From a virus (Duplodnaviria > Heunggongvirae > Uroviricota > Caudoviricetes), in IMG/VR virus record IMGVR_UViG_2541047847_000004: DNA of 54,394 nucleotides; one strand, written 5' to 3'. Below the pieces are notes generated by a model. That model ran no database searches. It was not told where the DNA came from and saw only the letters and a list, made by a program, of their open reading frames with translations. Shown piece by piece: positions 36,540 through 52,861 of this stretch; position 1 is the stretch's first letter; every line of letters starts with the position of its first letter. A program made the translations under genes and the position numbers.

Positions 36540-36647
36540 AAATCAGCACGTACGAATTCAAACTCTGCCATAAAAGAACATATAAGTAATTTATTAACAT
36601 ATAGATATAGGTTATATTACAAATTGAAAAATTATTGGAGAGCAACA

Positions 36648-37516: not shown

Positions 37517-37762
37517 ATGTTGCTCCCGTGTGCAGACGGGATAATGGAGAAACGTATGCTGAACCTCGATTGTGTTCCTATCTCAACTTATTGCAAAGAA
37601 ACTGGCGAAACTCCTGAAGCAATAAACAAACGTGTACAGCGCGGTGTTTGGCGTGAAGGTGTTCAGGTTTTAAAGGTTGAAGGCGTTAAGGAGAGGTGGA
37701 TTGATCTTAGTGAGGTTGCAAAATGGGCCAGACAAAACTGCTCAAACTACCGCGCGGCGTAA
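37517..37762 (+). CDS. xis: Excisionase-like protein
   Basis: Small basic ORF directly upstream of and overlapping int; alternative start at 37556 (GGAG + 6 nt). Confidence 0.5.
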   Translation: MLLPCADGIMEKRMLNLDCVPISTYCKETGETPEAINKRVQRGVWREGVQVLKVEGVKERWIDLSEVAKWARQNCSNYRAA

Positions 37763-38895
37763 CAATCAGGAAACACCGCCAGGGAGAAACGATCAATATA
37801 ACTTTCACCTACAAAGGAGTTAGATGTCGTGAGCCGCTTTCCAATCTGGAAGTAACACCAAAGAACATTAAATACGCCGAGCGTACACTCGGCGAAATCC
37901 ATAATAAGATCGAAAGGGGAACATTCATTTATGCAGAATATTTTCCCCGTTCTGCTCGTTTGAAAATTTTTGGTAATGCTGCTGCAGGCAAAACGGTAAA
38001 GGTGTACCTGGACGAATATCTTGAAATCTGCGAAACAAGAAAACTTTCACCCTCTACGATTGGTGGCTATAAAAAATGCCGTAGTGCGTTAGCCTCACTT
38101 CACATTTGCCCTGCAAGTGAATTAACACCAGCAACCCTGAAAGCGTGGATTCAAAGCCAGAAAACAACCTTAAAAACCATTCGCAACCAGTTATCTTTCC
38201 TACGGTCAGCACTTGATGAAGCCGTGACCGATGGGGTACTTCAAATTAACCCCGTATCGTTAGTAACAGCTTCGCGCTACCAAAGTGATAAGTCAGAAGC
38301 AGAAAGCAGCTATGTGGTTGATCCGCTATCACCAGCAGAAGTTGATGCATTACTAGCAGCAGCCGGAAACAAACAATGGGAAAATCTGTTCCGGTTCGCC
38401 ATACATACAGGCCTGCGTAGTTCTGAATTATGTGCCCTACGATGGCATGATATCGACTTTGTTGGAAAAACAGCCCATGTTCAGAGCGCAAGTGTTGTCG
38501 GAGTTATCAAAGGAACAAAGACAAAAGCCGGTACCCGTAAAGTTGAACTGACTGAAGAAGCAATGTTGGCGTTGATAAACCAGAAGCCATTTACATTCAT
38601 GAAGGATGCTACTGTCTTTGAAGATCCAAAGACCAATAAACCCTGGGCAAGTGCTGATGCAATTAGGAAAAAAGCATGGGTGCCAACATTGCGAAAAGCA
38701 GGTATTCGTTACAGAAACCCATATCAAACCAGGCATACATTCGCCACCAGCCATATCAGCCGGGGAGCAAACCTGTTTTGGCTTGCGGCTCAAATGGGCC
38801 ATAAAGGGCCTGAAATGTTATTCAGGCACTATGGACAATACTTGAAAGAGTATGATGGGAGGGCAAGTATCAAGGATAAAAAGGCTTTATTTTAA
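37723..38895 (+). CDS. int: Tyrosine integrase (prophage)
   Basis: 390 aa; C-terminal R...H..R...Y catalytic pattern (HTFATSHISRGANLF...LGHKGPEMLFRHYGQY). Confidence 0.85.
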   Translation: MGQTKLLKLPRGVTIRKHRQGETINITFTYKGVRCREPLSNLEVTPKNIKYAERTLGEIHNKIERGTFIYAEYFPRSARLKIFGNAAAGKTVKVYLDEYLEICETRKLSPSTIGGYKKCRSALASLHICPASELTPATLKAWIQSQKTTLKTIRNQLSFLRSALDEAVTDGVLQINPVSLVTASRYQSDKSEAESSYVVDPLSPAEVDALLAAAGNKQWENLFRFAIHTGLRSSELCALRWHDIDFVGKTAHVQSASVVGVIKGTKTKAGTRKVELTEEAMLALINQKPFTFMKDATVFEDPKTNKPWASADAIRKKAWVPTLRKAGIRYRNPYQTRHTFATSHISRGANLFWLAAQMGHKGPEMLFRHYGQYLKEYDGRASIKDKKALF

Positions 38896-39504
38896 GTCAT
38901 TATGCCAATCGTCTACTGTTTGAAACCAAATTTTTAACCTTTGCATAAAGGTACGATCCTTTTTGGGAGGGTGGTACCTTTGAAAAGAAGTATGTAACGC
39001 TTCGATAACTCCCATACAAGCATCAATTACTTCTTGTGCTTTAACCGGGCGATCGGTATCTGAAAGCTTGTGAGCGACCTCACAATCCAGAGTTGCTTTC
39101 TCTAGTACAGATGAGAACACCTCGTCAGGTATATACAGTCCTCTGCTTTCCAAAATGCAAATCAGTTTGGAAACTTGTTGAGCTTTAGCCAAGATAGTTA
39201 ACAAGTATGAAACAGAAGCCTTTGTTCTATCCTTTTGCAACCTTAACAATCGATGCTTTGATGCTCTAATTTTAGGTTGAGTTGTCTGACTGAGCCAATA
39301 GTTAGAAGAAATATCAGAAATTTCAATAACTAACTTTGAAATAGCATCAATAATTGATTTCGATTCAGAACGTGTCGCCAGTTTTACAGAATTATTGTAC
39401 GCAACTCGCCATCCAATGAAAACTAAGCAGACGCTAACTACTGTGATACACCACGAATACTGTCCTATTTGTGCTACTAATGACATTGGTTCCGTACTGA
39501 TCAA
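38887..39504 (-). CDS. Membrane-anchored protein, third gene of GHKL operon
   Basis: 205 aa, single N-terminal TM helix (WCITVVSVCLVFIGW) then largely helical soluble part; 10-nt gap to upstream gene; 3' end overlaps int 3' end. Confidence 0.45.
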   Translation of the reverse strand: MISTEPMSLVAQIGQYSWCITVVSVCLVFIGWRVAYNNSVKLATRSESKSIIDAISKLVIEISDISSNYWLSQTTQPKIRASKHRLLRLQKDRTKASVSYLLTILAKAQQVSKLICILESRGLYIPDEVFSSVLEKATLDCEVAHKLSDTDRPVKAQEVIDACMGVIEALHTSFQRYHPPKKDRTFMQRLKIWFQTVDDWHNDLK

Positions 39505-39514
39505 CTATCGCCTC

Positions 39515-39841
39515 TTATACTCTTTCTGGTTGTGCTAAATCAATAAATTTATCAATCTGTTCTTTGTAGAACGGAACATCACTTTTTATAATCAAACGTG
39601 CTTTAACGTTGGCTTTAGGTATCCCTTCCTTACGGATGAGACCTCCAAACGCCTCTTCTAAGAAAGAGGAACCAACACCCAGTGCTATACCGCGAAAATC
39701 AACCACAATCTCCTGTTCAGTACCCTTCAGCGCAGGCACCAAAAACTCTCTACGAAATCTTTCCGCACTGTGTGGGCTATCCGTTGTGTAACGTCCGAAA
39801 GGTGTTCTGGAGAACTCCTTCGCTATGACGATATTTCTCAT
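39515..39841 (-). CDS. Small soluble protein, possibly STAS-like (DUF4325-type)
   Basis: 108 aa; 4-nt gap from upstream GHKL gene; family guess from memory of sequence pattern, unverified. Confidence 0.4.
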   Translation of the reverse strand: MRNIVIAKEFSRTPFGRYTTDSPHSAERFRREFLVPALKGTEQEIVVDFRGIALGVGSSFLEEAFGGLIRKEGIPKANVKARLIIKSDVPFYKEQIDKFIDLAQPERV

Positions 39842-39845
39842 AAAA

Positions 39846-40757
39846 TCATCTCCTGGGAACCAGCGACCATTGTAGTAAAGTACCCGGTATGTACTCAGCT
39901 AGCTTCTCACATCGAGGACTACTGTCATTAGAATTATAGCTATAACGAGCCCTTCCTGTTAGTATCAGAAGTGTCTCATTATCCTCACAACCTGCCCCAA
40001 TAGGTCTCTTGATATCTTCAGAGCCATTTCCCCGTCCGGAACCAACAAAGCGGGATTCCCCTACTAACATAGCTCTTTCCACAGAAGATACTTCGTTTTG
40101 AATGCTATGACCATCACCATTAGGCACGAAACTTCTATAAATCCCCAATCCAAGGTCACAAACGATAAAAACGACTTTATTTTCATCACGATTGAACCAA
40201 GCGCACTGCCACCATCGTTTACCTTTGAGAAGCTGAATATCTGACTCGAACCCCTCATCTTCATACGCATGATGAGAAACATTGAGCAAAGCTTCACTAA
40301 TCGCTGTCAGCAGTAAGCCTAACTGTTCATTATTAAGCAGAGCACTTTTCTGCAGCATGAGTACTGTTTCAACAATATGCTCGTAAGGTTCGACAGCTGA
40401 CTGAAAGTATCGTTCCTCCCTCGTAAGTGCATTCAGTTTCTCTTCTGTGCCAGCAAGCAAAGCACGAGCAAGTCCAGTACCAACGATCCATCTATGCCCA
40501 GATGGGTTATCATCCTTTTTAGGCCATTTAAAACGTATAAAATTAGGGTCCCGGGTTAAAAATTGAGCTCTATTTACTATGGCAAAGAACAGTACCGATG
40601 CCGCAGCTGAGGCAAATTTTACCTTGGACAAATCAACTATAACTCGACCTTTATTTTTTACTCCAATCGATTCAATCGAGTTGATGAAGTTCAATGTCCC
40701 AGCCCTAGAATCATCTGAGTAAATGCAAAATTTGCTTGGGGGTACCAGTATGGTCAT
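39846..40757 (-). CDS. GHKL-superfamily ATPase (histidine-kinase-like ATP-binding domain) with unassigned N-terminal region
   Basis: N-box SEALLNVSHHAY, G1 box VCDLGLGI, G2 box GSGRGNG in order in the C-terminal half; no HisKA/dimerisation domain or receiver visible. Confidence 0.55.
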   Translation of the reverse strand: MTILVPPSKFCIYSDDSRAGTLNFINSIESIGVKNKGRVIVDLSKVKFASAAASVLFFAIVNRAQFLTRDPNFIRFKWPKKDDNPSGHRWIVGTGLARALLAGTEEKLNALTREERYFQSAVEPYEHIVETVLMLQKSALLNNEQLGLLLTAISEALLNVSHHAYEDEGFESDIQLLKGKRWWQCAWFNRDENKVVFIVCDLGLGIYRSFVPNGDGHSIQNEVSSVERAMLVGESRFVGSGRGNGSEDIKRPIGAGCEDNETLLILTGRARYSYNSNDSSPRCEKLAEYIPGTLLQWSLVPRR

Positions 40758-40909
40758 AGCGATGTCATTCTTATACGATGGATTTATAGATTATCTACTA
40801 TTCATAGTTGGTTATGAAGACTGGGATATAACAGTAAAAGATACGTGTAAGATCCGCAAGATAGTTAATGTCGAAAAAAATCATTAATTACATCAAGTTA
40901 GTGATATTT

Positions 40910-40941
40910 GGACTCGGGTTCAACTCCCGCCAGCTCCACCA
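40910..40941 (+). repeat. ssrA: 3'-terminal fragment of tmRNA gene ssrA (attachment-site repeat)
   Basis: GGACTCGGGTTCAACTCCCGCCAGCTCCACCA matches the T-arm/acceptor 3' end of E. coli tmRNA; upstream sequence is unrelated AT-rich DNA, so only the att core is present. Confidence 0.7.
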
Positions 40942-41055
40942 CTTGCTCTTCCGGATACGTCCGGAGAAATCCTGAAAGCCCGCATGGCACAAGCTTTGCG
41001 GGCTTTTTTGTGTCTATCTTTGTCCGAGGATATCCAGCTAAATCCAGTGATTATT

Positions 41056-41103
41056 GGTATATGTTTAGGTATACGGTAAGATGTATACCTAAAAGCGTAT
41101 ACC
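41056..41103. repeat. Cluster of four GGTATAC motifs upstream of int (putative integrase arm-type sites)
   Basis: Two direct and two inverted GGTATAC copies; two further copies at 52640-52658 near the other element end. Confidence 0.35.
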
Positions 41104-41125
41104 AATACTCTGAGGTAGGATAATC

Positions 41126-42319
41126 GTGGCACGTACAACACGCCCTCTTACTAACACTGAACTATCACGTGCTAAAGCAACTGAAAAGGATCTAACGCTA
41201 CATGATGGTGATGGGCTTTTTCTACTCATAAAAACGAACGGAAGGAAGTTGTGGCGTTTCCGATACCAGAAGCCTGTATCAAAACAGAGAACCATGATTA
41301 GTTTAGGAACGTTCCCCGCCCTATCTCTGGCTGAGGCCAGAAACGTGCGTGCTGAGTATCTTTCCTTATTAGCCCGGGGTATTGATCCACAAACATACAG
41401 TAAGCAAGTCTCAGAACATCAACAGATTGCGATTGATAGTATTTTTTCAAAAGTTGCCACAAATTGGTTTGCCATAAAAAGCAATAACGTCACACCTGAT
41501 TATGCAAAGGATATATGGCGATCCTTAGAGAGGGACATTTTCCCTGCTATCGGTGAGATTCCTGTTCAGGAAATAAAAGCCCGCACATTAATTGAAGCCC
41601 TAGAGCCAATTAAAGCTCGTGGGGCACTTGAGACTGTTCGTCGTTTAGTACAACGTATTAATGAAATTATGATTTATGCTGTTAATACTGGTCTGATAGA
41701 TGCTAACCCTGCTTCAGGCATTGGTATGGCATTTGAAAAACCTAAAAAACAGCACATGCCAACGCTTAGACCTGAAGAATTACCGAAACTCATGCGTTCA
41801 ATAACAATGTCTAATTTATCTATTCCAACTCGTTGTTTGATTGAATGGCAACTCTTAACACTTGTACGCCCTGCAGAAGCTTCCAATGCAAAGTGGATAG
41901 AGATCGATTTCGAAGCTAAACTATGGATAATACCAGCCAATAGAATGAAGGCAAAGCGGGAACATATTGTTCCATTATCACTTCAGACATTAGATATTCT
42001 TGAAATTATGAAGCCAATCAGTTCACATCGAGAATATATTTTTCCTAGCAGGAATAACCCCAATCAACCAATGAACAGTCAGACGGCAAATGCAGCCTTA
42101 AAGCGCATCGGTTATGGTGGTAAGTTGGTTGCACACGGACTGCGTTCGATAGCAAGTACAGCAATGAATGAAGCTGGTATAAATCCAGATATTATCGAAG
42201 CAGCACTTTCCCATTGTGATAAAAATGAGGTTAGAAGAGCATATAATCGAACAACCTACTTGGAACAAAGAAAAGAGCTTATGAATTGGTGGGGTAGTTT
42301 CATTTCAAAAAACAAATAA
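41126..42319 (+). CDS. int: P4-type tyrosine integrase
   Basis: 397 aa from GTG; N-terminus MARTTRPLT...LHDGDGLFLLIKTNGRKLWRFRY typical of P4-family integrases next to ssrA. Confidence 0.9.
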   Translation: MARTTRPLTNTELSRAKATEKDLTLHDGDGLFLLIKTNGRKLWRFRYQKPVSKQRTMISLGTFPALSLAEARNVRAEYLSLLARGIDPQTYSKQVSEHQQIAIDSIFSKVATNWFAIKSNNVTPDYAKDIWRSLERDIFPAIGEIPVQEIKARTLIEALEPIKARGALETVRRLVQRINEIMIYAVNTGLIDANPASGIGMAFEKPKKQHMPTLRPEELPKLMRSITMSNLSIPTRCLIEWQLLTLVRPAEASNAKWIEIDFEAKLWIIPANRMKAKREHIVPLSLQTLDILEIMKPISSHREYIFPSRNNPNQPMNSQTANAALKRIGYGGKLVAHGLRSIASTAMNEAGINPDIIEAALSHCDKNEVRRAYNRTTYLEQRKELMNWWGSFISKNK

Positions 42320-42329
42320 GGATATAGTG

Positions 42330-43445
42330 ATGAATAATAAAGATTTTCCATGCAAAGCCTCAAATATCTATGATAAAAATATAAATTTTTTATTTGGCTC
42401 AGGCTCCTCTGCTTCATATATTCCTACTCTCTATCTAGATAAAAACACTACTTATGAAACATTACTTACACATGAGGATTGTGAGGGTGTCAAGGACTTC
42501 ATATTATGTTCTTATTTCAATAATATCATTAGAAAAACATTTTGTGTTAAACCTAATAGTGAAGACAAAAAATATAATTCTACTTTAGCAAACTATAGCT
42601 ACTTTATTGATGAACTAATCAAATTATTAGAGAAAAAAGGGGCAAATCAAATAAGGCGAGCGAATATTTTTACAACAAATTATGATCTTTTTTTCGAAAC
42701 TGCGGCTGATGATATTTTAAATAATAAAACATTTCATTTCAATGACGGTGGTCTAGGTTTCAAAAGCCGGAAATTGAACATTAGTAATTTTCATATTACT
42801 GCTTGGCATCAAGGTACGCATGATATGTACAAACATGAAATTCCAACAGTAAACTTAATAAAAATGCATGGTTCTGTTTCTTGGTGTAGAGATATTAATG
42901 AAACGATTAGTATTAATTACACTCAAGAAGAACCACCAAAGTTTAGACTAGATACAAAAAAAGACATTAATGATTTAGTCACCACCTTAAACGAAACAAG
43001 CGATAATCTCGTTAGTTATTTAAATTTATCTACAAGCGATCAAGAAACACTTCAAGAATTTAAATCTTATTACAACAACTTAGCTATAGTTAGCCCAACT
43101 AAAGAAAAATTTTCTGAAACTGTTTTTCAACAACATTATTACCAATGTTTACGATTGCTAAGTTATGAATTAGAGAAACCACAAACTGTATTAATTTGTT
43201 TTGGTTTTTCTTTTCAAGATGAACACATACGTGAGATTATAAAAAGATCATTAAGTAACCCTACTCTTAAGGTCTTTGTTTTTTGCTACTCAAAATCCAG
43301 CATGGAAAGTATACAGCACATTATCAATGACCAACGAATAACCTATATTCTTCCTATAGAAGATGATCATACAATTTCATTTAAACCGTTTATAGATAGA
43401 GTATTTAGATCTGAACACGGAGATTGGATTACATGGAAGAACTAA
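42330..43445 (+). CDS. SIR2-family NADase-like protein (defence pair with HerA)
   Basis: FLFGSGSS (Rossmann GxGxS), TTNYD and KMHGSVSW motifs characteristic of SIR2 domains; AT-rich; start at ATG 42330. Confidence 0.7.
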   Translation: MNNKDFPCKASNIYDKNINFLFGSGSSASYIPTLYLDKNTTYETLLTHEDCEGVKDFILCSYFNNIIRKTFCVKPNSEDKKYNSTLANYSYFIDELIKLLEKKGANQIRRANIFTTNYDLFFETAADDILNNKTFHFNDGGLGFKSRKLNISNFHITAWHQGTHDMYKHEIPTVNLIKMHGSVSWCRDINETISINYTQEEPPKFRLDTKKDINDLVTTLNETSDNLVSYLNLSTSDQETLQEFKSYYNNLAIVSPTKEKFSETVFQQHYYQCLRLLSYELEKPQTVLICFGFSFQDEHIREIIKRSLSNPTLKVFVFCYSKSSMESIQHIINDQRITYILPIEDDHTISFKPFIDRVFRSEHGDWITWKN

Positions 43446-45205
43446 TTGTTGGTAATGTTACCCAAATAAAGGGCACAACAGTAAGGGCCAAAATCAATCA
43501 TGACTTTTTTCAGTCAACATACTTTCATAAAGGTAAAATACTACGAGGTATCTCTATAAATGAATTTGTTTTGATTAAAAAAGGTTATCACGATATCGTC
43601 GGAAAGATTATTGGTGAAGAAATTGTTGAAAACATCAATATTAGAAGCGATGAAATTGAACAAAAAAAATATGACCGTTTTGTAGAACTGAATATTTTAG
43701 GGTATTTTTTTGAGAGTTCATTTTATTCCGGTATAAAATTTTTACCAATGATAAATGACAGCTTACACTTAATTTCAGACGAGAAGATATCAGAAATATA
43801 TAAGTTTAGCAAAAACACTAAAGCACCTTTAATAAACATAGGGAAATCTATGTTAGAGGAGTTGCCAATTAACATACCAATAAATGGTATTTTTAATTCA
43901 CACATAGGCATATTTGGAAACACTGGAAGTGGCAAGTCCAACACTCTTGCAAAACTTTATCACTCTCTAATAAACCTTATAACAACAAAAGAAAGAGTTA
44001 TATCAAAATCAAGTTTTGTTTTGATTGATTTTAATGGTGAATACAGCACATTTGCTACGTCATTTCCAGATTTGTGCGAACAAGTCAATCTCAACACAAA
44101 GAATTCCGGTGATAAACTAACTTTCACTGATGATGAATTTTGGGATGATGAATTATTATCGGTATTGTTTTCTGCAACTGAAAAAACTCAAAAGCCATTT
44201 CTTAGTCATTTAATTAAAAATAGAGAAAAATATAATGGTAAATTGGAGGATTACTTACAAACAACTATCCACAGTATGTTTTCTCCTAATCCACACAGGG
44301 AAACAATAAATTTATTAAAAAGCCTTGCCCCTTACTTTTCAGAGAGAGCACAGGGTAAAATACTTGAAGAGTTATCACAATTCTCATGGCATTCTGGGCA
44401 AAATAAGTATTTGCACTCAAAATACAACTTCATTGATAAAATGGAAGATGCTTTACAGGCTTTAGATGCAACATATAAATCCAAGTTTAAGTTAAACAGC
44501 GTTTTTGATGAAGTTGCAATCCGATCTATTCTACAACTAATTAATTCAGTATCACGTAATTATGTACAATATGATCATATATATCCGCTAATTAATAAAA
44601 TAACGGCAATGACTCCTGCCCTATCCAAAGTAATTAATATCAGAAACGAAACAAAAAATAAAAAACCTATATATATAGTGTCATTAAAAGAGTGCAATCA
44701 ATTAATCAAAAAAACCATTCCAATGATGCTTGCAAAATGTTCATTCTTAGAGCACAAGTCATCTAAAAATACAAAGGAAAGCTTCCACCTAATTATAGAT
44801 GAAGCACACAACATATTGTCTGAAACATCTGTCAGAGAGGCGGAAACATGGAAAGATTATAGGCTTGAGTTATTTGAGGAAATAATAAAAGAGGGAAGGA
44901 AGTTTGGGTTCTTCGTTACAATTTCGAGTCAACGACCTTTTGACATCTCTCCCACAATTGTTTCCCAACTTCATAATTATTTTATTCATCGATTAGTGAA
45001 CGAAAATGATTTGTTTTTGTTAAAAAATACTTTAAGCACCCTTGATGCGGCATCAAGATCACTAATTCCAACACTTCCTCCTGGTGGGTGTATAGTTTCA
45101 GGAACAGCTTTCCACACCCCATTACTTGTTCAAATCGACAGATTAGCTGAGGAAAATGCTCCTAACAGCGATACTCTTGATTTAGAAAAATTGTGGGATA
45201 TTTAA
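43433..45205 (+). CDS. herA: HerA-like ATPase
   Basis: Walker A GNTGSGKSN and Walker B HLIIDEAHN; overlaps SIR2 stop; start at ATG 43433 (track TTG 43424). Confidence 0.75.
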   Translation: MEELIVGNVTQIKGTTVRAKINHDFFQSTYFHKGKILRGISINEFVLIKKGYHDIVGKIIGEEIVENINIRSDEIEQKKYDRFVELNILGYFFESSFYSGIKFLPMINDSLHLISDEKISEIYKFSKNTKAPLINIGKSMLEELPINIPINGIFNSHIGIFGNTGSGKSNTLAKLYHSLINLITTKERVISKSSFVLIDFNGEYSTFATSFPDLCEQVNLNTKNSGDKLTFTDDEFWDDELLSVLFSATEKTQKPFLSHLIKNREKYNGKLEDYLQTTIHSMFSPNPHRETINLLKSLAPYFSERAQGKILEELSQFSWHSGQNKYLHSKYNFIDKMEDALQALDATYKSKFKLNSVFDEVAIRSILQLINSVSRNYVQYDHIYPLINKITAMTPALSKVINIRNETKNKKPIYIVSLKECNQLIKKTIPMMLAKCSFLEHKSSKNTKESFHLIIDEAHNILSETSVREAETWKDYRLELFEEIIKEGRKFGFFVTISSQRPFDISPTIVSQLHNYFIHRLVNENDLFLLKNTLSTLDAASRSLIPTLPPGGCIVSGTAFHTPLLVQIDRLAEENAPNSDTLDLEKLWDI

Positions 45206-45225
45206 TATCGCTACGCGCAGTGCTT

Positions 45226-45262
45226 TCCCCGCCTCGCCCGCACGCTTTGCGGGGCGGTTTTA
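45226..45262 (+). terminator. Intrinsic terminator after herA
   Basis: ccccgc...gcgggg stem followed by cggtttta; two further GC-rich hairpins at 45286-45309 and 45340-45374. Confidence 0.5.
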
Positions 45263-45402
45263 ATGCAGTTGCACTGACACGCTCAGACCGCGCCGGGAAT
45301 GGCGCGGTCTGCAGAAAATGAGGCAGGGAAACGCATGCAAAGCCATGCACCTTATCGATGCATGGCTTTTTTCAGTAAAAACAGGCGGATTTTCGGGAAA
45401 TT

Positions 45403-45975
45403 TTACACAGACTGACGTGATGCCAGTTGCGCACTTTTACGCGAAAAAATCATGTTCTGCGCAGGGGTAAATTTTTCACGGCTGTCGTCCACCGAAGCCG
45501 CGTCAGGCCTGAATCCGATGGTCGTTAAAATGTCGCTATCCTGTGCGGAATAATTAATTTTTTCCCCCTTCGCAAGCCAGGACAGAAGGGCTTCACGCAG
45601 GGCATCTGTGGCACGCTGTATGGCACAGTTTCGGGCAATGGCCGTCAGCTCACTGTAGCCCATCAGCTCCGGTGCCAGTGCCGCCGCCAGTGCTGTGCCG
45701 TGCTGCTGCATAAAATCATTCAGCCGGTCGCGGATGCTGATGTGCTGAACGGCTTCATGCGAACGAATATAACGACCAGCGGCCTGATTCACCTGCCATT
45801 TTCTGACTTCGATAATATTGCGTAATTCGTCCAGGCGACTGACGTTTCTGCCTTCTCCTGACAGAAGCCGCAGATATTCCTGTTCGGCCGCTGCCAGCTC
45901 ATTTTTGCGTTGCAGCCATGCTGCTTTGTTATTCTGACAGGTGTCAAAGGCCTGCTGTAAGGCTGTGCTTTCCAT
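45403..45975 (-). CDS. psu: Polarity suppression protein Psu
   Basis: 190 aa, same length and position as P4 Psu in the sid-delta-psu block. Confidence 0.75.
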   Translation of the reverse strand: MESTALQQAFDTCQNNKAAWLQRKNELAAAEQEYLRLLSGEGRNVSRLDELRNIIEVRKWQVNQAAGRYIRSHEAVQHISIRDRLNDFMQQHGTALAAALAPELMGYSELTAIARNCAIQRATDALREALLSWLAKGEKINYSAQDSDILTTIGFRPDAASVDDSREKFTPAQNMIFSRKSAQLASRQSV

Positions 45976-46048
45976 CGTTATCTCTTTCTCATCATGCTGA
46001 AGAATAAAAATACGGTGTGCGGCGACGGCCGGTGTTAACCGGCAGCCC

Positions 46049-46549
46049 TCATTCCAGACGCAGCGAATATGATTGTGTTTTTAAGCGTACTGGCGGCAGT
46101 TCCTGTTTTTCATGCAGGCTTTCTGCCAGTTCGTCCGGCGTGACCGGGCGGACAATGAAACGGTTGATGGTCTGAAGCGTTTTAAACACCAGACCACAGC
46201 CCGGATCCGTGCACACATAAAAACGCTCGGTGACTTCCTGAGACAGACGCCGCGATGTTCTTGACAGTGCAAGGCCTTTACATCTCCGACAACAATATCC
46301 GGTAACAAGCATTCTTTTCGGGCGTTTCATACTGCCGGAGGCTGACGTCAGTGAATCGCGGTATCTCTGTTTGCCTGAAATGTATTCCATTCCTGAATCT
46401 TTACTGTCAGAGAAAAAGCTTTCACTCGCTTCAAATGTCGCAGAGCAATAAATATTCCGGCACTGTGCAATCATTATCTTGGTGCCATCGTCCATGAAAT
46501 GTGCGCGGCGGGTGTGAGCAACATGACCACACGACGGGCAGTAAATCAT
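46049..46549 (-). CDS. delta: Delta (Ogr/Delta zinc-finger late transcription activator)
   Basis: 166 aa with two CxxC...CxxC units (CPSCGH...C...C and CCRRCKG...CTDPGC). Confidence 0.75.
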   Translation of the reverse strand: MIYCPSCGHVAHTRRAHFMDDGTKIMIAQCRNIYCSATFEASESFFSDSKDSGMEYISGKQRYRDSLTSASGSMKRPKRMLVTGYCCRRCKGLALSRTSRRLSQEVTERFYVCTDPGCGLVFKTLQTINRFIVRPVTPDELAESLHEKQELPPVRLKTQSYSLRLE

Positions 46550-47280
46550 GACAGCAGTCCTCTGGCCTTAAGCACTGCTCCCTGCTGGTCTATTTTGTCC
46601 TGCCACACCTTGCGCTGTGCCGGTGTGCCTGCCACCTCATAATCCATGTGAGGAAGTGTTGCCGCTGACAGTCCGGTCAGCCGGAGAACCGGCTCGCCGG
46701 TGAGGCTGATTTGCATCTGTTTAATTTTCTGTTCCAGCGATGATTTCACCTGCTGCATGACAGCCTTTTCCGGTGCGACGTAGCCCTGATGGCCGGTGGT
46801 GTTGGCGAGCGGATTTTCCTGTACCAGAATGCTCAGATGCATTGCCCGGACAAGCGCCTCACAGGTTTCATTCAGGGCGTGTTCCAGCTCATGCTCTGCA
46901 TACAGACTCAGAAGGTGATGATGTGCCTTCCGGTAGGCGGTGGCCGTGCTGTCACACGCCCCTTTCAGGCGTTCGCGTTCAAAATTCAGCACCACGGCCA
47001 GATTGTCATATTCCTGTACCAGTTCCCGGCGTGCCACGCGCTCAATGTGGCGCTGTTTCAGCTCGTCGCTCAGGACACCACCGGCTGCACGAAAGGCCGT
47101 GCGCCAGTCGTCAGCGTCGTTTCCGTCGGCCTGCGCCAGCGCATTTTTTTCCTGCTCTGCCCGTTCAATGGCCGTGACGGTCTCATCCATCAGGCGGGCG
47201 TTCTCAAGATGGGCGGCTCTGGCCTTTTCCAGTTGTGCCAGTGCGGGTTGCAGATATTCAGGGATGGTGTTGTCAGACAT
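46546..47280 (-). CDS. sid: Capsid size determination protein Sid
   Basis: 244 aa from ATG 47280; upstream of delta with overlapping stop/start. Confidence 0.7.
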   Translation of the reverse strand: MSDNTIPEYLQPALAQLEKARAAHLENARLMDETVTAIERAEQEKNALAQADGNDADDWRTAFRAAGGVLSDELKQRHIERVARRELVQEYDNLAVVLNFERERLKGACDSTATAYRKAHHHLLSLYAEHELEHALNETCEALVRAMHLSILVQENPLANTTGHQGYVAPEKAVMQQVKSSLEQKIKQMQISLTGEPVLRLTGLSAATLPHMDYEVAGTPAQRKVWQDKIDQQGAVLKARGLLS

Positions 47281-47449
47281 TTTCCGGCTCCTCGTCACTT
47301 CAGGTTAAGAAAATTGTGACGTACACCGGACAACAACACGACGCATTGCAGATGTGCCAGCCCTGACACAGGAGACTCATCCTCAGACCGGCAAGCCAGG
47401 AAAAGGTCGCAGGAAAAACCGGCTTACTGTTTGTTTTTTTATATTTTAC

Positions 47450-47553
47450 TGTTCACCTCTGTTCACCATAAGAAAAAAGACAAGTAATACAGTAAGTTAA
47501 ATGGTGAACAATCGCAGTAATGACTGTTCACCGTCTGTTCACCACTGTTCACC
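47450..47553. repeat. TGTTCACC iteron cluster (P4 crr/ori-type alpha-binding sites)
   Basis: Six TGTTCACC octamers (five direct, one inverted) within ~100 bp. Confidence 0.6.
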
Positions 47554-47880
47554 CGTTGATGGGCTTTTTGTGCTGTTTATTACTGTTTGTTTTTATTAAT
47601 TCGCCGGGAATGAATAAGAAAAAACGATTTGTATTTCACTATAAAAATTACGAATTGCTTTAAGTGGCTTTAAATGACTTTAAGTGGAGATGAACAAAAA
47701 ACACACAAGCATTATAAGACTGCCGGAACAAATCCCCCCTGTTGCGTCTGCTGAAAATATTCACAAAATAAAGCGCTACCCGAAGCCGGACGGACTTATC
47801 CGGTGCTGTATGGACATTAACGAGGTAGCCCGATGCAAGCTGTTTTTTCTTCCCCGTCTCCCGCCCCTGTGACGCCACTG

Positions 47881-48099
47881 ATGCCGCTGCCGGACATCAC
47901 GCAGGAGCGTTTTTTACGTCTGCCGGAAGTGATGCACCTGTGCGGCCTGTCACGCTCGACCATCTATGAACTCATCCGTAAGGGGGAATTTCCGCCGCAG
48001 GTGAGTCTTGGCGGTAAAAATGTGGCCTGGCTGCACTCTGAAGTCACTGCATGGATGGCCGGGCGCATTGCCGGACGCAAACGGGGGTACGACGCATGA
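47881..48099 (+). CDS. AlpA-family transcriptional regulator (Vis-like)
   Basis: [31 protein letters not shown] typical of AlpA; start set to ATG 47881. Confidence 0.6.
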
Positions 48100-48497
48100 T
48101 GATGCCCGCTCTGCAAAAACGCCCTTTTTCTGGCTTGCCTTTTTCCGGCATTTGCGGATATAGTTTTTCCGCTGCCGCAAAATCGGCAGCCGGGCGTGGA
48201 AACCCGAGCAATTCACAGGCGACATATGACGCGCCATGCGTCTTTTTTTGTGTCGCAATCAACGCCACAGAGCGCCAGATTATGGTGTGGTGTGTGGTCA
48301 GTCGTGCAGATGGCATTCCGTGCATCCTGCCCGCGTCCGCTCATTATGCCGCAGAGTCAATGGTAGCTCAGGCGGGGCAGCCTCCGGGCTGGCCGGTATC
48401 CTGTGAAGCCGGTATTTCCACCCCCGTCTGGGCTATCGCCATCGAGCGTGGAAACTCCGGCGATAGCGTTATTTGCTATTCACAGGAGGCTGCCATC

Positions 48498-48695
48498 ATG
48501 GCTACAACCCTTACCCCCTCACACCCTGAATTTGTCTTTGTGTTTGCGGCTGTCCGTCGCGCAGACCGTCATCCCCGTATCTGTATGCTTCGCACCGTCG
48601 CCGGTGATGAACGCAGTGCCCGCCGTTCCCTTGTCCGTGACTATGTGCTCTCCCTTGCTGCCCGTCTGCCGGTGGTGGAGGTGTCCCGTGCGTAA
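48498..48695 (+). CDS. Icd-like small protein
   Basis: 65 aa from ATG 48498 (AGGAGG upstream); in-frame with a longer track ORF that I consider an artefact. Confidence 0.4.
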
Positions 48696-48975
48696 TAAAA
48701 AAGCCCCTCAGACCGTCTCAGCGCGTCATGACGCCCGTGAACACCTCAGCATTGAGGCTTACCATAAGCTCAACCGCGCCAGCGCCGTATCCCGGTTTGT
48801 TGGGGGTGATTTGATTCACCGTGAACTCTCCGGCCTGCATCAGCTCTACATTCCGCATATTTTCAGCTACCTGAATGAAGATATTGATTTTGTGCTGAAT
48901 GAGCTGAAAGCCAAAGGCCTGTGCCGCGATTTTCTCGCCCAGCAGAAAGACCGGGGAGACAGGACGCATGTTTGA
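48688..48975 (+). CDS. Hypothetical 95-aa protein (epsilon-like by position)
   Basis: GTG start with GGAGG 7 nt upstream, overlaps preceding stop; position equivalent to P4 epsilon. Confidence 0.35.
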
Positions 48976-49423
48976 TTTTCCCCAGCCCGGTGAGATTTAC
49001 CGTTCTGCCGGTTTTCCCGATGTGGCCGTGGTCGGCATTCTGGAAGACGGTATTCCGTGGGAAATGCCGTACCGCTGCCCGGACATTGTCTGGAACCCGT
49101 ACCGCCGTAAATTCAGTATCCTTGTGCGTATCCTCGCTGACGGGCGCACCACAGACATCCCGCTGGGGCGTTTTCTGCGGGAATTTACCTGTGACCGTCC
49201 TGACCTGTTTAAACGCAGCCCCGTAAACCGGCATGCGGTACTGAAAGAAATGGCCGGAGACCCGGAATTACAGAAATGGCGGGAGAAATATCTGGATATT
49301 TACCCGCAGGACACTGTTCCGGCCAGCCGGGCGGCACCGGTGGCGCGGGAATGGCGGGAAATTCCCCGCACGGAGCCTGACCCGGAAATCACCCCGGATA
49401 ACAGTTACCGCAATTATCTGTAA
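48968..49423 (+). CDS. Hypothetical 151-aa protein (P4 orf151-like by size and position)
   Basis: Translationally coupled to upstream gene; upstream of alpha. Confidence 0.45.
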   Translation: MFDFPQPGEIYRSAGFPDVAVVGILEDGIPWEMPYRCPDIVWNPYRRKFSILVRILADGRTTDIPLGRFLREFTCDRPDLFKRSPVNRHAVLKEMAGDPELQKWREKYLDIYPQDTVPASRAAPVAREWREIPRTEPDPEITPDNSYRNYL

Positions 49424-49558
49424 TTAAAAAACGACACCCGAAAAATTAAATGTGCGTATTCGCGCAGGGATACGCACGTCTTCAGGAGACGCAGATATGC
49501 CTTATCAGTTAATGCAACCGGCACGGAATGCAGTCATCTGTCACAGGGAGGAAAGCAA

Positions 49559-49879
49559 ATGAAAACACCCTTACCGCCCGTCTTACGCGCTGCCCTTTAC
49601 CGTCGCGCTGTCGCCTGTGCCTGGCTGACCGTGTGCGAACGTCAGCACCGCTACCCGCATCTCACCCTTGAGTCACTGGAGGCGGCCATCGCCGCTGAGC
49701 TGGAAGGCTTTTATCTGCGCCAGCACGGTGAGGAAAAAGGGCGTCAGATAGCCTGTGCCCTGCTGGAAGATTTAATGGAATCCGGCCCCCTGAAGGCCGC
49801 GCCGTCGCTGTCCTTTCTCGGGCTGGTTGTGATGGATGAACTCTGTGCCCGTCACATAAAAGCGCCGGTACTGCACTGA
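49559..49879 (+). CDS. Hypothetical 106-aa protein
   Basis: ORF with AGGGAGGA RBS immediately upstream of alpha. Confidence 0.4.
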
Positions 49880-49893
49880 AGGAGAACAACACC

Positions 49894-52227
49894 ATGAAAA
49901 TGAACGTAACCGCCACCGTCAGCCATGCGCTCGGCCACTGGCCGCGTATTCTCCCGGCGCTGGGGATTCAGGTGCTGAAGAACCGTCATCAGCCCTGTCC
50001 GGTCTGTGGCGGGAGTGACCGCTTCCGTTTTGATGACAGGGAGGGGCGTGGCACCTGGTACTGCAATCAGTGTGGTGCCGGTGACGGCCTGAAACTGGTT
50101 GAAAAGGTGTTTGGTGTTTCCCCGTCCGACGCGGCCGCAAAGGTGGCTGCCGTGACCGGCAGCCTGCCACCGGCTGACCCGGCAGTGACGGCCGCCGCCG
50201 TTGCTGAAACAGAAGCCGCCCGGAAGAACGCCGCCGCACTGGCACAAACCCTGATGGCGAAAACCCGTCCCGGAACCGGTAACGCCTACCTGACCCGCAA
50301 GGGCTTTCCCGGCCGGGAATGCCGGATGCTGACCGGCACACACAGAGCCGGTGGCGTGAGCTGGCGCGCCGGTGACCTTGTGGTGCCACTGTATGACGAC
50401 AGCGGCGAACTGGTTAACCTTCAGTTAATCAGTGCTGACGGCCGTAAGCGCACCCTGAAAGGCGGACAGGTCAGGGGCACCTGTCACATCCTTGAAGGAC
50501 AGAATCAGACCGGAAAACGTCTGTGGATAGCGGAGGGATACGCGACCGCACTTACCGTGCATCACCTGACCGGTGAAACGGTGATGGTGGCGCTTTCTTC
50601 CGTGAACCTCCTTTCTCTGGCCAGCCTTGCCCGGCAGAAGCATCCGGCCTGTCAGATTGTCCTTGCCGCAGACCGTGACCTCAGCGGTGACGGCCAGAAA
50701 AAAGCCGCCGCAGCCGCAGATGCGTGTGAAGGTGTTGTTGCCCTGCCGCCGGTCTTCGGTGACTGGAATGATGCCTTCACGCAGTACGGCGGGGAAGCCA
50801 CCCGTAAGGCCATTTACGATGCCATCCGGCCACCGGCTGAAAGCCCGTTCGACACCATGAGCGAAGCGGAGTTTTCCGCCATGAGTACCAGCGAAAAGGC
50901 CATGCGTATCTATGAGCATTACGGCGAGGCGCTCGCGGTCGATGCCAACGGCCAGCTTCTGTCCCGCTATGAAAATGGTGTCTGGAAGGTGCTGCCGCCA
51001 CAGGACTTTGCCCGGGATGTGGCCGGGCTGTTTCAGCGGCTGCGCGCGCCGTTCTCCTCCGGGAAGGTGGCCTCCGTGGTGGACACCCTGAAGCTGATTA
51101 TTCCGCAGCAGGAAGCCCCCTCCCGCCGCCTGATTGGCTTTCGTAACGGCGTGCTCGACACGCAGAACGGCACGTTCCACCCGCACAGTCCGTCACACTG
51201 GATGCGCACCCTGTGCGATGTGGATTTCACCCCACCGGTGGAAGGGGAAACGCTGGAAACCCACGCCCCCGCGTTCTGGCGCTGGCTTGACCGTGCCGCC
51301 GGTGGCCGTGCGGAAAAACGCGACGTGATTCTGGCCGCACTGTTTATGGTGCTGGCAAACCGCTACGACTGGCAGCTCTTTCTGGAGGTGACCGGTCCCG
51401 GCGGCAGCGGCAAAAGTATCATGGCCGAAATAGCCACCCTGCTGGCCGGGGAGGATAACGCCACGTCGGCCACCATTGAGACGCTGGAATCCCCGCGTGA
51501 ACGTGCCGCGTTAACTGGCTTCTCACTGATACGCCTGCCGGACCAGGAAAAATGGAGCGGCGACGGTGCCGGACTCAAGGCCATCACCGGCGGCGATGCG
51601 GTGTCCGTGGACCCGAAATACCGGGATGCGTACTCCACGCATATCCCGGCGGTGATTCTGGCCGTGAACAATAACCCGATGCGCTTCACCGACCGCAGCG
51701 GCGGCGTGTCACGCCGGCGGGTGATTATTCACTTCCCGGAACAGATAGCCCCGCAGGAGCGCGACCCGCAGCTTAAGGACAAAATCACCCGCGAGCTGGC
51801 GGTCATCGTGCGTCACCTGATGCAGAAATTCAGCGACCCGATGCTCGCCCGGTCACTGCTTCAGTCCCAGCAGAACTCAGACGAGGCGCTGAACATCAAA
51901 CGGGATGCCGACCCGACGTTTGATTTTATCGGCTATCTGGAAACCCTGCCGCAGACCAGCGGCATGTATATGGGGAACGCCAGTATCATCCCGCGCAATT
52001 ACCGTAAATACCTCTATCACGCCTATCTGGCCTACATGGAGGCAAACGGCTACCGGAATGTACTCAGTCTGAAAATGTTCGGGCTGGGGCTGCCGGTGAT
52101 GCTGAAGGAATACGGACTGAATTACGAGAAGCGCCATACCAAACAGGGGATACAGACCAACCTGACGCTGAAAGAGGAAAGCTACGGCGACTGGCTGCCA
52201 AAATGTGACGACCCTGCGACAGCCTGA
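49894..52227 (+). CDS. alpha: Alpha primase-helicase (P4 alpha-like)
   Basis: 777 aa: N-terminal Zn-binding CPVCGG...CNQCG, TOPRIM-like region, P-loop VTGPGGSGKS. Confidence 0.9.
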   Translation: MKMNVTATVSHALGHWPRILPALGIQVLKNRHQPCPVCGGSDRFRFDDREGRGTWYCNQCGAGDGLKLVEKVFGVSPSDAAAKVAAVTGSLPPADPAVTAAAVAETEAARKNAAALAQTLMAKTRPGTGNAYLTRKGFPGRECRMLTGTHRAGGVSWRAGDLVVPLYDDSGELVNLQLISADGRKRTLKGGQVRGTCHILEGQNQTGKRLWIAEGYATALTVHHLTGETVMVALSSVNLLSLASLARQKHPACQIVLAADRDLSGDGQKKAAAAADACEGVVALPPVFGDWNDAFTQYGGEATRKAIYDAIRPPAESPFDTMSEAEFSAMSTSEKAMRIYEHYGEALAVDANGQLLSRYENGVWKVLPPQDFARDVAGLFQRLRAPFSSGKVASVVDTLKLIIPQQEAPSRRLIGFRNGVLDTQNGTFHPHSPSHWMRTLCDVDFTPPVEGETLETHAPAFWRWLDRAAGGRAEKRDVILAALFMVLANRYDWQLFLEVTGPGGSGKSIMAEIATLLAGEDNATSATIETLESPRERAALTGFSLIRLPDQEKWSGDGAGLKAITGGDAVSVDPKYRDAYSTHIPAVILAVNNNPMRFTDRSGGVSRRRVIIHFPEQIAPQERDPQLKDKITRELAVIVRHLMQKFSDPMLARSLLQSQQNSDEALNIKRDADPTFDFIGYLETLPQTSGMYMGNASIIPRNYRKYLYHAYLAYMEANGYRNVLSLKMFGLGLPVMLKEYGLNYEKRHTKQGIQTNLTLKEESYGDWLPKCDDPATA

Positions 52228-52234
52228 CCCACCT

Positions 52235-52259
52235 GACCGGCATCTGCCGGTCTTTTTTT
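52235..52259 (+). terminator. Intrinsic terminator after alpha
   Basis: gaccggc-atct-gccggtc followed by seven T. Confidence 0.6.
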
Positions 52260-52269
52260 ATCCCTGAAT

Positions 52270-52590
52270 TCCCCGAAGGTGAACAATCCACTGTTCACCC
52301 TTCACCGTATATTCACCTGTTATCACACTGAAATTAAAAGAGAAAAACGAAAGGTGAACAGTGTGAACAATCAAATCAAAAAAAACTTTTTTTCTCCCTG
52401 TGTGATTTCAGTACGGGGGATTAATCACCGGTATGAGTCACACCGGCAGAATGCCGGAGGTGAAGAATCGAATGTTCACCCTTCACCCATTATTCACCAC
52501 CTATCATACTGAAATAAAAGGAGAAAAAAGAAAGGTGAACAGTGTGAACAGTTCTTTCGAAAAAAAATTTTTTTTCTGTACGATATAGCA
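52270..52590. repeat. Origin-like region: two ~95-bp direct repeats each containing TGTTCACC/GGTGAACA iterons and flanked by A/T runs
   Basis: Units at 52278-52372 and 52459-52553 are near-identical. Confidence 0.55.
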
Positions 52591-52712
52591 TCAATCCAAG
52601 TAAAAATGCGCTTTCATTTCACATTAACTTACAGCCATTGGTATACGATTAGGTATACGTACAAAAACTGAATTAAACAAAATCATTAAAAATCAAAACA
52701 ATACAGCATTTA

Positions 52713-52734
52713 TTCAAACTCCGCCAGCCCACCA
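52713..52734 (+). repeat. Diverged copy of the ssrA 3' end (probable attR of the P4-like element)
   Basis: TTCAAACTCCGCCAGCCCACCA vs TTCAACTCCCGCCAGCTCCACCA at 40919-40941. Confidence 0.4.
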
Positions 52735-52861
52735 ATCATGATTGGACGGTGTAAGGACTACACCAACAAAAACAGGAAGTTATAAGTCTCAGCAGGACAC
52801 CGACCAGACGGTGAGGAGACAAAAAAGGATACGCAACGGAGTCGCGACTCCCTATGACATT

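Follow-up and report, generated by a model that had tools for sequence, protein, structure and literature searches.

What are the two AT-rich genes that lie between the integrase gene and psu of a P4-like satellite, and what purpose do they serve? The question is raised by a stretch of viral DNA of 54,394 nt (the window; Caudoviricetes, IMG/VR record IMGVR_UViG_2541047847_000004), in which an earlier note, made from the letters alone, had proposed a SIR2-HerA anti-phage pair at 42330-45205. The results presented below indicate, with a probability of about 90%, that these genes form a SIR2-HerA operon for defence against phages and travel as accessory cargo of a P4-like satellite integrated at ssrA, in its int-psu hotspot.

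The structure of the two genes was established directly. The first gene, sir2 (42330..43445, plus strand), encodes a SIR2-family protein of 371 aa from its ATG, a predicted NADase effector, and the second, herA (43433..45205, plus strand), encodes a HerA/FtsK-type ATPase of 590 aa from its ATG. With alternative starts included, the open reading frames run from 42327 or 42330 to 43445 and from 43424 or 43433 to 45205, giving an overlap of 13 nt if herA starts at the ATG or 22 nt if it starts at the TTG; the ATG starts of both genes are those chosen by PGAP in E. coli loci 99.6% identical to the window. The longest stop-free run in the pair region was 596 codons; when the same 2886 nt were shuffled 1000 times, the longest run averaged 82 codons and never exceeded 191, showing that the long frames of the pair are not due to chance. 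The GC contents of sir2 (29.3%) and herA (31.9%) are below those of int (40.5%), psu (52.9%), alpha (61.2%) and the whole window (49.4%), so that the pair, at 29-32% GC, stands against a backbone of 49-61%; this agrees with the earlier description of two overlapping AT-rich genes. The int stop codon lies 10 nt upstream of the sir2 start. A promoter scan returned 17 promoter-like sites against 18.2 expected, none of them convincingly placed upstream of sir2, so that it is the 10-nt spacing which suggests that sir2-herA may be cotranscribed with int.

The identity of the first protein was examined by profile, motif and structure comparison. The result showed that it matches the PADLOC SIR2-HerA model PDLC04089 at 4.1e-65, as well as 23 further PADLOC SIR2 models, and the Pfam family SIR2_2 with 45.6 bits (cut-off 24.5). 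The motifs reported earlier are all found in the sequence: GSGSS at residue 23, TTNYD at 115 (N117, D119) and MHG at 179 (H180). In an alignment of 44 homologues, down to 38% identity, G23, S24, G25, N117, D119 and H180 are invariant. Residue 26, in the NAD-binding Gly-rich loop, is serine in the window protein and alanine in at least 90% of these homologues. The GSGSS motif of the earlier note is thus genuinely present but is the window allele rather than the family consensus, which is GSGAS; the E. coli copies carry A26. The TTNYD and HGS motifs of the window protein align with the same motifs in the Nezha SIR2 chain 8j4u. An AlphaFold2 model of the protein (pLDDT 83.6, pTM 0.85) was compared with the PDB by Foldseek, and its best 39 matches were all SIR2 subunits from the SIR2-HerA complexes of E. 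coli Nezha, Paenibacillus and PsSIR2 (E 2.4e-14 to 7e-10, TM 0.45-0.62), whereas SPARSA, sirtuins and Avs5 followed at 1e-4 or worse. The predicted fold therefore resembles HerA-associated SIR2s more closely than SIR2s of other classes, even though the window protein shares only 14-19% identity with the solved SIR2s. Taken together, the profiles, the conserved catalytic residues and the modelled fold uphold the earlier designation of a SIR2-type protein.

The assignment of the second protein was unambiguous. It matches the PADLOC HerA profile PDLC04097 at 1.1e-192 across residues 6-592 of 593, and Pfam DUF87 with 66.1 bits (cut-off 23.2; 6.6e-18). It contains a Walker A motif, GNTGSGKS, at residue 162 (K168), a Walker B motif, LIIDE, at 453 (D456/E457), an SQRP motif at 499, and a further motif, D199-x-x-GEY. 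A phmmer search matched it to five solved defence HerAs at 2e-22 to 3e-29, of which 9c1m and 8yho were covered nearly over the full length (residues 33-588 and 19-574 of the window HerA, respectively) and 8xau, 8wiv and 8j4u in part. These results confirm that the protein is a HerA-type ATPase, Walker A and Walker B motifs included, as had been read from the letters, and the profile check proposed in the earlier note came out in favour of both assignments, with PADLOC and Pfam models backing SIR2 and HerA alike.

Since both domains have housekeeping relatives, a sirtuin protein deacylase acting beside a HerA DNA-repair helicase, in the manner of the archaeal HerA-NurA system, was considered; archaeal HerA 4d2i is indeed matched by the window HerA at 4.5e-13 (phmmer), and sirtuins appear among the matches of the SIR2 model at 1e-4 or worse. 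However, defence SIR2s and HerAs match better by at least 8 orders of magnitude, the SIR2 protein falls in the SIR2_2 family and not in the deacetylase SIR2 family of Pfam, and no NurA, Mre11 or Rad50 gene was found among the neighbours. The low GC content, the position as cargo of a mobile element and the presence of the pair in merely 12 of 5426 E. coli genomes also speak against a housekeeping role, which was rejected on the PADLOC, Pfam, phmmer and Foldseek evidence and is extremely improbable.

The distribution of the pair was then compared across genomes. Among 5426 E. coli genomes, 2224 match the query over at least some of its length, most of them at a flank only; the pair itself is present in 12, and a 76% variant occurs in three more. 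The exact SIR2 sequence was found on 355 contigs and the exact HerA sequence on 333, from E. coli and Salmonella, and the alleles across the 12 complete genomes differ by 1-4 residues. More distant homologue pairs were found within a P4-like element at the ssrA of Enterobacter (54% identity), next to TA and RM genes in Gilliamella (48% identity) and on the chromosome of Listeria (39% identity). In E. coli, Enterobacter, Gilliamella and Listeria the order is always SIR2 followed by DUF87/HerA, co-oriented and overlapping or abutting, demonstrating that the SIR2-HerA pairing is a conserved module across taxa.

These data also bear on whether the copy in the window is inactive or decaying, that is, recognizable by homology yet without function. 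The A26S change affects a nearly invariant Gly-rich loop, and Zhang et al. (2026; PMC13434337) obtained robust protection against their phage panel from only four of the eight E. coli Sir2-HerA clusters that they assayed; the window pair may belong to the half that gave none. Nevertheless, both open reading frames are intact, HerA is full length against the PADLOC profile, and every invariant catalytic residue is retained. In addition, the occurrence of the exact sequences on hundreds of contigs, together with alleles that differ by so few residues, is the pattern of maintained genes, and a non-functional copy is accordingly very improbable.

The element that carries the pair was delimited by its core genes, RNAs and attachment site. 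Its left border is formed by attL (40911..40942, plus strand), where 32 nt of the ssrA (tmRNA) 3' end remain; GGTTCAACTCCCGCCAGCTCCACCA has one exact match, at 40917-40941, with 0 expected by chance, and the ssrA terminator hairpin follows at about 40975-41010. No complete tRNA or tmRNA was found within the window by ARAGORN or by an Rfam scan, and related satellites sit immediately 3' of a complete ssrA. The integrase gene int (41126..42319, plus strand) encodes a P4-type tyrosine integrase of 397 aa with Pfam domains Arm-DNA-bind_3, Phage_int_M and Phage_integrase above their cut-offs. Beyond the pair lie, on the minus strand, psu (45403..45975; polarity suppression/capsid decoration protein, Pfam Psu 1.3e-88), delta (46049..46549; Ogr/Delta zinc-finger activator of helper late genes, Pfam Ogr_Delta 6.9e-22, in two copies) and a sid-like gene (46546..47298), which was assigned to capsid size determination by its position and by the annotation of the near-identical locus L001; its product has no Pfam match, and L001 carries the label 'glycoprotein 3' at the homologous position. 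On the plus strand, the P4 immunity region (48158..48443) comprises the c4-a1b1 target (48158-48210; 50.2 bits), isrK (48171-48248; 74.9 bits) and the C4/cI antisense RNA (48356-48443; 76.6 bits), all above their Rfam gathering scores, and alpha (49894..52227, plus strand) encodes a primase-helicase of 777 aa with Pfam domains Zn_Ribbon_Prim, Toprim_3, D5_N, DUF5906 and Pox_D5. A tentative attR (52716..52737, plus strand), TTCAAACTCCGCCAGCCCACCA, was spotted by eye as a degenerate copy of the ssrA 3' core and was not recovered by a repeat finder or by a search allowing three mismatches; if this candidate is right, the satellite would be about 11.8 kb long. The presence of int, psu, delta, sid and alpha, arranged in the order known from P4, together with the C4 RNA, isrK and the ssrA attL, identifies the host element as a genuine satellite of the P4 type, as the earlier note had supposed, and places it at ssrA.

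Within this satellite, sir2-herA takes up 93% of the space separating int from psu. The right border of the slot (45201..45402) is conserved backbone: among the matches listed, all five E. coli genomes without the pair match the psu-side flank only, with about 95-96% identity to positions 45201-45400 of the window. A terminator-like hairpin (45243-45256) lies between the convergent herA and psu genes. On the other side, the int allele (99.9-100% identical) is restricted to the same 12 E. coli genomes as the pair, and related ssrA-type integrases carry other cargo in this position, namely a P-loop NTPase, two hypothetical genes or a different SIR2+HerA pair, which shows that the slot is variable. 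The int-psu cargo hotspot of P4-like satellites was described by Rousset et al. (2022; PMC9122126), who also confirmed anti-phage activity for many of the systems that it carries. The placement of the pair in a variable int-psu slot known for defence cargo, asserted earlier from the sequence, is thus borne out both by gene positions and by that study.

The pair itself also has a prior record. Table S1A of Rousset et al. (2022; PMC9122126) lists a 'SIR2_2 + DUF87' combination in the E. coli P4 hotspot, classed there as 'SIR2 + HerA (Gao et al., 2020)', with the accessions WP_072834289 or WP_040073453 for SIR2 and WP_032172094 or WP_094122396 for HerA. The E. coli loci that bear these accessions are 99.4-99.6% identical to the window, and the listed proteins differ from those of the window by 3-4 residues in SIR2 and 1-2 in HerA; peculiar to the window allele are S26, V174 and further small differences in SIR2, and E449 in HerA. 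The same pair in the same slot was therefore already catalogued in 2022, and the assignment made here is a correct, ordinary annotation; together with the profiles, that classification agrees with the earlier placement of the pairing in the known SIR2-HerA defence family. The text of Rousset et al., so far as it was available, gives no sign of the pair among the 18 hotspot systems that were cloned and tested.

How the window pair relates to characterized systems was assessed by sequence and residue comparison. It shares with Nezha, the E. coli SIR2-HerA system (PDB 8J4U, 8SU9, 8SUB, 8UAE), the two-gene order with SIR2 first and HerA second; TTNYD and (L/M)HGS motifs align, the model of the window SIR2 finds its best structural matches in the solved SIR2 chains, and the HerA ATPase core is homologous. 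However, the phmmer match between the SIR2 proteins reaches only E 2e-13 and is broken into two fragments, identity being 17-19% and the TM score about 0.6, the HerA proteins match at 1.6e-22, and both window proteins are shorter than their Nezha counterparts (371 versus 415 aa for SIR2 and 590 versus 610 aa for HerA). By these measures the window subtype is distant from the solved Nezha system. Membership in the NCBIfam anti-phage equivalogs was rejected, as the scores fell far below the cut-offs (80.1 against 500 bits for SIR2_antiphage NF042942, and 119.2 against 800 and 110.9 against 850 bits for HerA_antiphage NF042943 and NF042944). In the near-identical E. coli loci, the public PGAP names are only 'SIR2 family protein' and 'ATP-binding protein'; such generic names are consistent with the failure to reach the equivalog cut-offs, and the public annotation under-describes both genes.

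Like the window pair, the type III Sir2-HerA of E. coli (Zhang et al., 2026; PMC13434337) belongs to a divergent, non-Nezha lineage. An Asp lies 31 residues after the Walker A Lys in the window HerA (D199), and the spacing in type III is 30 (K188/D218, the latter a nickase residue; PMC13434337). Type III has its HerA Lys at K188 and its catalytic Sir2 Asn at N238, whereas the window proteins have K168 and N117, the Sir2 shift amounting to 121 residues; this comparison, made by residue numbering only, points to a different protein architecture and argues against the window pair being type III. The best PDB sequence match of the window HerA (3.2e-29, residues 33-588) was the HerA of the HerA-DUF4297 system (PDB 9C1M, 8XAU). 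The effector of that system is a DUF4297 (Cap4-like) nuclease, whereas the upstream partner in the window is clearly a SIR2, and a HerA-DUF4297 reading was rejected. A second SIR2+HerA subtype (WP_021516368 + WP_021516369, locus L010) occupies the same P4 slot in the same gene order behind an integrase about 80% identical, and is likewise entered in the Rousset table as SIR2_2 + DUF87 (PMC9122126). Its similarity to the window pair is local, with about 26% identity over 90 residues in SIR2 (E 0.003) and 38% over the 121-residue ATPase core in HerA; the L010 pair is a separate lineage.

It is conceivable that the pair, although a SIR2-HerA homologue, serves the satellite itself, for example as an addiction or stabilization module or by interference with its helper phage or with rival satellites. 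In favour of this are its residence on a mobile satellite, its tight linkage to a single integrase allele, a spacing from the int stop that suggests cotranscription, and the toxicity, in principle, of abortive-infection effectors. On the other hand, Gilliamella has the module in a defence island and Listeria on the chromosome, in both cases outside satellites, and no antitoxin is indicated by the sequence. Moreover, Rousset et al. (PMC9122126) class the pair as a known defence system from a hotspot with many systems validated as anti-phage. A role confined to the interests of the satellite is thus improbable, and anti-phage defence remains the preferred reading.

The mode of action can be proposed by analogy. 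Nezha and the types I-III described by Zhang et al. (2026; PMC13434337) have been demonstrated to deplete NAD+ when triggered by phage and to act by abortive infection. Nezha and type III are reported to unite NADase and ATPase functions with those of a nuclease or nickase in abortive infection (PMC13434337; PMC11514289; PMC11472057). A literature search found no published phenotype for the window subtype; complex formation, NADase activity, trigger and defence phenotype are predicted from these relatives. SIR2 and HerA of the window would assemble into a large complex, quiescent in uninfected cells, possibly in the form of a SIR2 dodecamer and a HerA hexamer as in the distant relatives 8su9, 8uae and 8j4u. 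A phage cue at infection would act via the ATPase/DNA-handling module of HerA and switch on the SIR2 NADase. The resulting collapse of NAD+ would arrest the growth of the infected cell before phage progeny are produced, and such abortive infection would shield the clonal population and thereby the resident satellite.

These results show that a reading of the sequence alone can recognize both the defence pair and its satellite context. As the system type, the NAD+-depleting logic and residence in the P4 int-psu slot had all been published, the finding matters little beyond correct annotation. There is a speculative and rather unlikely possibility that the pair has a trigger and gating logic of its own, distinct from those of Nezha and type III, and that its expression is coupled to the satellite integrase. 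The former is suggested by the 14-19% identity of its SIR2 to solved SIR2s and by a HerA nearest to the DUF4297-partnered HerAs, and the latter by the start of sir2 10 nt after the int stop and the strict linkage to one int allele. If expression is indeed coupled to the integrase, defence would be tied to the life cycle of the satellite.

The sequence-only reading in the earlier note had proposed two overlapping AT-rich genes for a SIR2-type protein and a HerA-type ATPase, and this description held. On the plus strand, sir2 (42330-43445) encodes 371 aa from an ATG, with an open GTG one codon upstream, and herA (43433-45205, plus strand) encodes 590 aa from an ATG, with a TTG at 43424 also open; both ATG starts are those used by PGAP in near-identical E. 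coli loci. The two genes overlap by 13 nt, and their GC contents are 29.3% and 31.9%, compared to 40.5% for int, 49-61% for other satellite parts and 49.4% for the window. A 596-codon stop-free run was found in the sir2-herA DNA (30% GC), which is far above chance (1000 shuffles: mean 82, maximum 191). Every motif cited by the earlier note was present. SIR2 has GSGSS (residue 23), TTNYD (115) and MHG (179); HerA has Walker A GNTGSGKS (162) and Walker B LIIDE (453), plus two further motifs, D199-x-x-GEY and SQRP (499). In most near-identical loci PGAP also calls a 62-aa hypothetical protein (WP_072038093; 45162-45350, minus strand), which overlaps the herA 3′ end by 44 nt, sits in the conserved backbone border and had no PADLOC match; it may be a spurious call.

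The HMM check bore out both family assignments. SIR2 matched the PADLOC SIR2-HerA model PDLC04089 at 4.1e-65 and HerA matched PDLC04097 at 1.1e-192 (protein residues 6-592, profile positions 5-612 of 618), and two Pfam families cleared their cut-offs, SIR2_2 with 45.6 bits (24.5 required) and DUF87, the central domain of HerA proteins, with 66.1 bits (23.2 required). The narrow NCBIfam equivalogs SIR2_antiphage (80 bits, cut-off 500) and HerA_antiphage (119 bits, cut-off 800) were hit but scored far under their cut-offs, which accounts for the bare labels 'SIR2 family protein' and 'ATP-binding protein' that the two genes carry in public genomes. SIR2 matched the SIR2 of Nezha, a solved E. coli SIR2-HerA system (8j4u), at just 2.2e-13 in two fragments, within which the TTNYD and HGS motifs were aligned. 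HerA matched five solved defence HerAs at 1.6e-22 to 3.2e-29, the best being 9c1m from a HerA-DUF4297 system, and Sulfolobus HerA at 4.5e-13. A housekeeping sirtuin and HerA are therefore unlikely, as the defence-type relatives score higher by many orders of magnitude.

An AlphaFold2 model of SIR2 built from a 44-homologue alignment was confident (pLDDT 83.6, pTM 0.85). In a Foldseek search of the PDB, each of its 39 best matches was a SIR2 subunit from a solved SIR2-HerA complex, namely E. coli Nezha (8sub/8su9/8j4u), Paenibacillus 8yhx and PsSIR2 (8w9l/8wld), at E 2e-14 to 7e-10, TM 0.45-0.62 and 14-19% identity; SPARSA SIR2, eukaryotic sirtuins and Avs5 matched just at 1e-4 or worse. On the family models and the SIR2 fold matches together, the pair is a genuine SIR2-HerA system whose lineage lies far from those with solved structures.

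The homologue search returned 1610 SIR2 relatives; those in Enterobacterales were between 99% and about 50% identical, and the range extended to Firmicutes, with Listeria, for example, at about 40%. When 44 of them were aligned, no variation was seen at G23, S24, G25, N117, D119 and H180 or in a C-terminal GFSFxDEH block. Since both reading frames and the catalytic residues are intact and widely conserved, it is unlikely that the pair is a decayed copy. Residue 26 (42405-42407), in the Gly-rich NAD-binding loop, is Ser in the window (GSGSS), whereas Ala (GSGAS) is found in at least 90% of the 44 homologues and in all compared E. coli copies. The exact S26 protein occurs on 355 public contigs, from E. 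coli and Salmonella, and this abundance argues that the A26S change is tolerated.

The pair is hosted by a genuine P4-type satellite and lies between its int and psu, as had been claimed. The element contains int (41126-42319; Arm-DNA-bind_3, Phage_int_M and Phage_integrase), psu (45403-45975, minus strand; Pfam Psu, 1.3e-88), delta (46049-46549, minus strand), a gene in the sid position (46546-47298, minus strand), the alpha primase-helicase (49894-52227) and the P4 immunity RNAs c4-a1b1, isrK and C4 (48158-48443). Its left border consists of a 32-nt ssrA 3′-end remnant (40911-40942), after which comes the ssrA terminator, and related satellites in other genomes directly follow an intact ssrA. 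A degenerate copy of the remnant near 52716-52737 is tentatively the probable right border, attR, giving an element of about 11.8 kb. Just downstream of alpha, two 121-nt direct repeats (52273-52393 and 52454-52574; 83% identical, 181 nt apart) each hold GGTGAACA-type sub-repeats, and their position would fit the P4 crr/alpha-binding replication region.

From the int stop to the psu stop is 3083 nt, 93% of it occupied by sir2 and herA. Of 5426 complete E. coli genomes, 2224 matched a 3.2-kb query spanning this slot, in most cases via one flank; among the matches listed, all five genomes without the pair matched only at the psu-side segment 45201-45400, at about 95-96% identity. The pair was present at 99.4-99.6% identity in only 12 of the 5426 genomes, with a 76% variant in three more. 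Behind related ssrA-type integrases (80-82% identical) the cargo was an 816-aa P-loop NTPase, two hypothetical genes or a different SIR2+HerA pair, so the slot is variable, as the earlier note had held. The window int allele (99.9-100% identity) was confined to the same 12 genomes. The sir2 start, preceded by AAGGA, lies 10 nt after the int stop; in comparison loci from other genomes this gap was 10-12 nt with SIR2-HerA cargo (L002, L004, L010) versus 23-98 nt with other cargo (L009, L011). The short gap, its pattern in related loci, the linkage of allele and pair, and an integrase GC content (40.5%) below that of the remaining backbone suggest that int and cargo may move and be transcribed as one block.

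In L010 (8212-11030), behind an integrase about 80% identical, the same P4 slot holds a second SIR2 (344 aa) and HerA (594 aa) with local similarity only to the window pair. This is an unrelated SIR2+HerA lineage, and thus P4-like satellites of the ssrA type have independently acquired at least two such lineages. Three further settings keep the arrangement of SIR2 first and DUF87/HerA second, with the genes overlapping or abutting: an Enterobacter pair (SIR2 54% identical), likewise flanked by a P4-type int and by psu, next to smpB/ssrA; a Gilliamella pair (48%) that adjoins a TacA-type TA pair and an RM system, without a satellite; and a chromosomal Listeria innocua pair (39%). Therefore, the two genes travel together independently of P4. 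That the pair serves the satellite itself, via addiction or helper interference, is unlikely given this occurrence of SIR2-HerA outside satellites.

At ssrA, a prophage (1-40942), with its integrase end facing the satellite, is followed in tandem by the satellite (40911-52737). The 390-aa integrase of the prophage (37723-38895, Arm-DNA-bind_2 type), the second in the window, is followed, before the ssrA remnant, by three minus-strand cargo-like genes, none with a PADLOC match. By coordinate, the first (38887-39504) encodes a 205-aa protein of no family, the second (39515-39841) a DUF4325 STAS-like protein of 108 aa, and the third (39846-40757) a protein of 303 aa that matches HATPase_c_2 weakly, under the Pfam cut-off. 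Among 5426 E. coli genomes, 131 carry the block 37723-40910 at 99% identity or more, with the annotation hypothetical/STAS-like, and DUF4325 was absent from the defence literature. The block looks like a partner-switching-type module (kinase-like ATPase plus STAS) in the int-att cargo slot of the prophage, and is therefore a possible uncharacterised defence candidate. The Enterobacter loci L004 and L005 (1913-5988) carry the same integrase type ahead of P4 int, followed by SocA_Panacea and a 155-aa gene in L004 and by nothing in L005, and E. coli GDAR2-2 (L001, 8532-12120) has a P2-like prophage instead at that position. Because the contents differ among these loci and the window, the phage int-att gap appears to be a second variable slot, adjoining that of the satellite. 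Near the prophage end, a 296-aa ORF (36624-37514) in a 27-29% GC stretch fell into no Pfam family, matched PADLOC only weakly (Csx27, 1.4e-5), and may be another piece of foreign cargo.

The int-psu hotspot of P4-like satellites was described by Rousset et al. (2022; PMC9122126), who named 'SIR2 + HerA (Gao et al., 2020)' among its known defence systems. Their hotspot table lists 'SIR2_2 + DUF87' as WP_072834289 or WP_040073453 plus WP_032172094 or WP_094122396. These accessions come from the annotation of E. coli loci that share 99.4-99.6% identity with the window, and they differ from the window proteins by 3-4 (SIR2) and 1-2 (HerA) residues. Exact copies of the window SIR2 and HerA occur on 355 and 333 public contigs, respectively, with Salmonella serovars among the sources, under the name 'MULTISPECIES ... 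[Enterobacteriaceae]'. Being listed in that survey and detected by PADLOC, the pair in this slot is already known.

Zhang et al. (2026; PMC13434337) described eight Sir2-HerA clusters from 2289 mined E. coli genomes; Nezha and three others, covering types I-III, gave robust protection with abortive-infection growth collapse, and the other half of the clusters tested did not protect robustly. In the type III system of that report, phage SSB is the trigger, HerA is a nickase (D218) with an ATP checkpoint via K188, and Sir2 is an NADase (N238); the corresponding window numbering (N117, K168, D199) does not fit type III as described there. Type I, type II and the clusters without robust protection are candidate placements for the window lineage. 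In the window, the two-gene operon is intact, the catalytic residues expected of an NADase and an ATPase are conserved, and the fold of SIR2 comes closest to that of HerA-bound SIR2s. By analogy with relatives, a SIR2:HerA complex would be assembled and silent in uninfected cells, a phage cue would activate it through the HerA ATPase/DNA module, and SIR2 would then drive NAD+ collapse, with abortive infection as the outcome. We put the probability that this pair in the P4 hotspot forms a SIR2-HerA defence system at about 0.9. Protection by this lineage via NAD+ depletion is judged probable with less confidence, because of its divergence, the lack of robust protection in half of the clusters of Zhang et al. 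and the A26S change in the Gly-rich loop.
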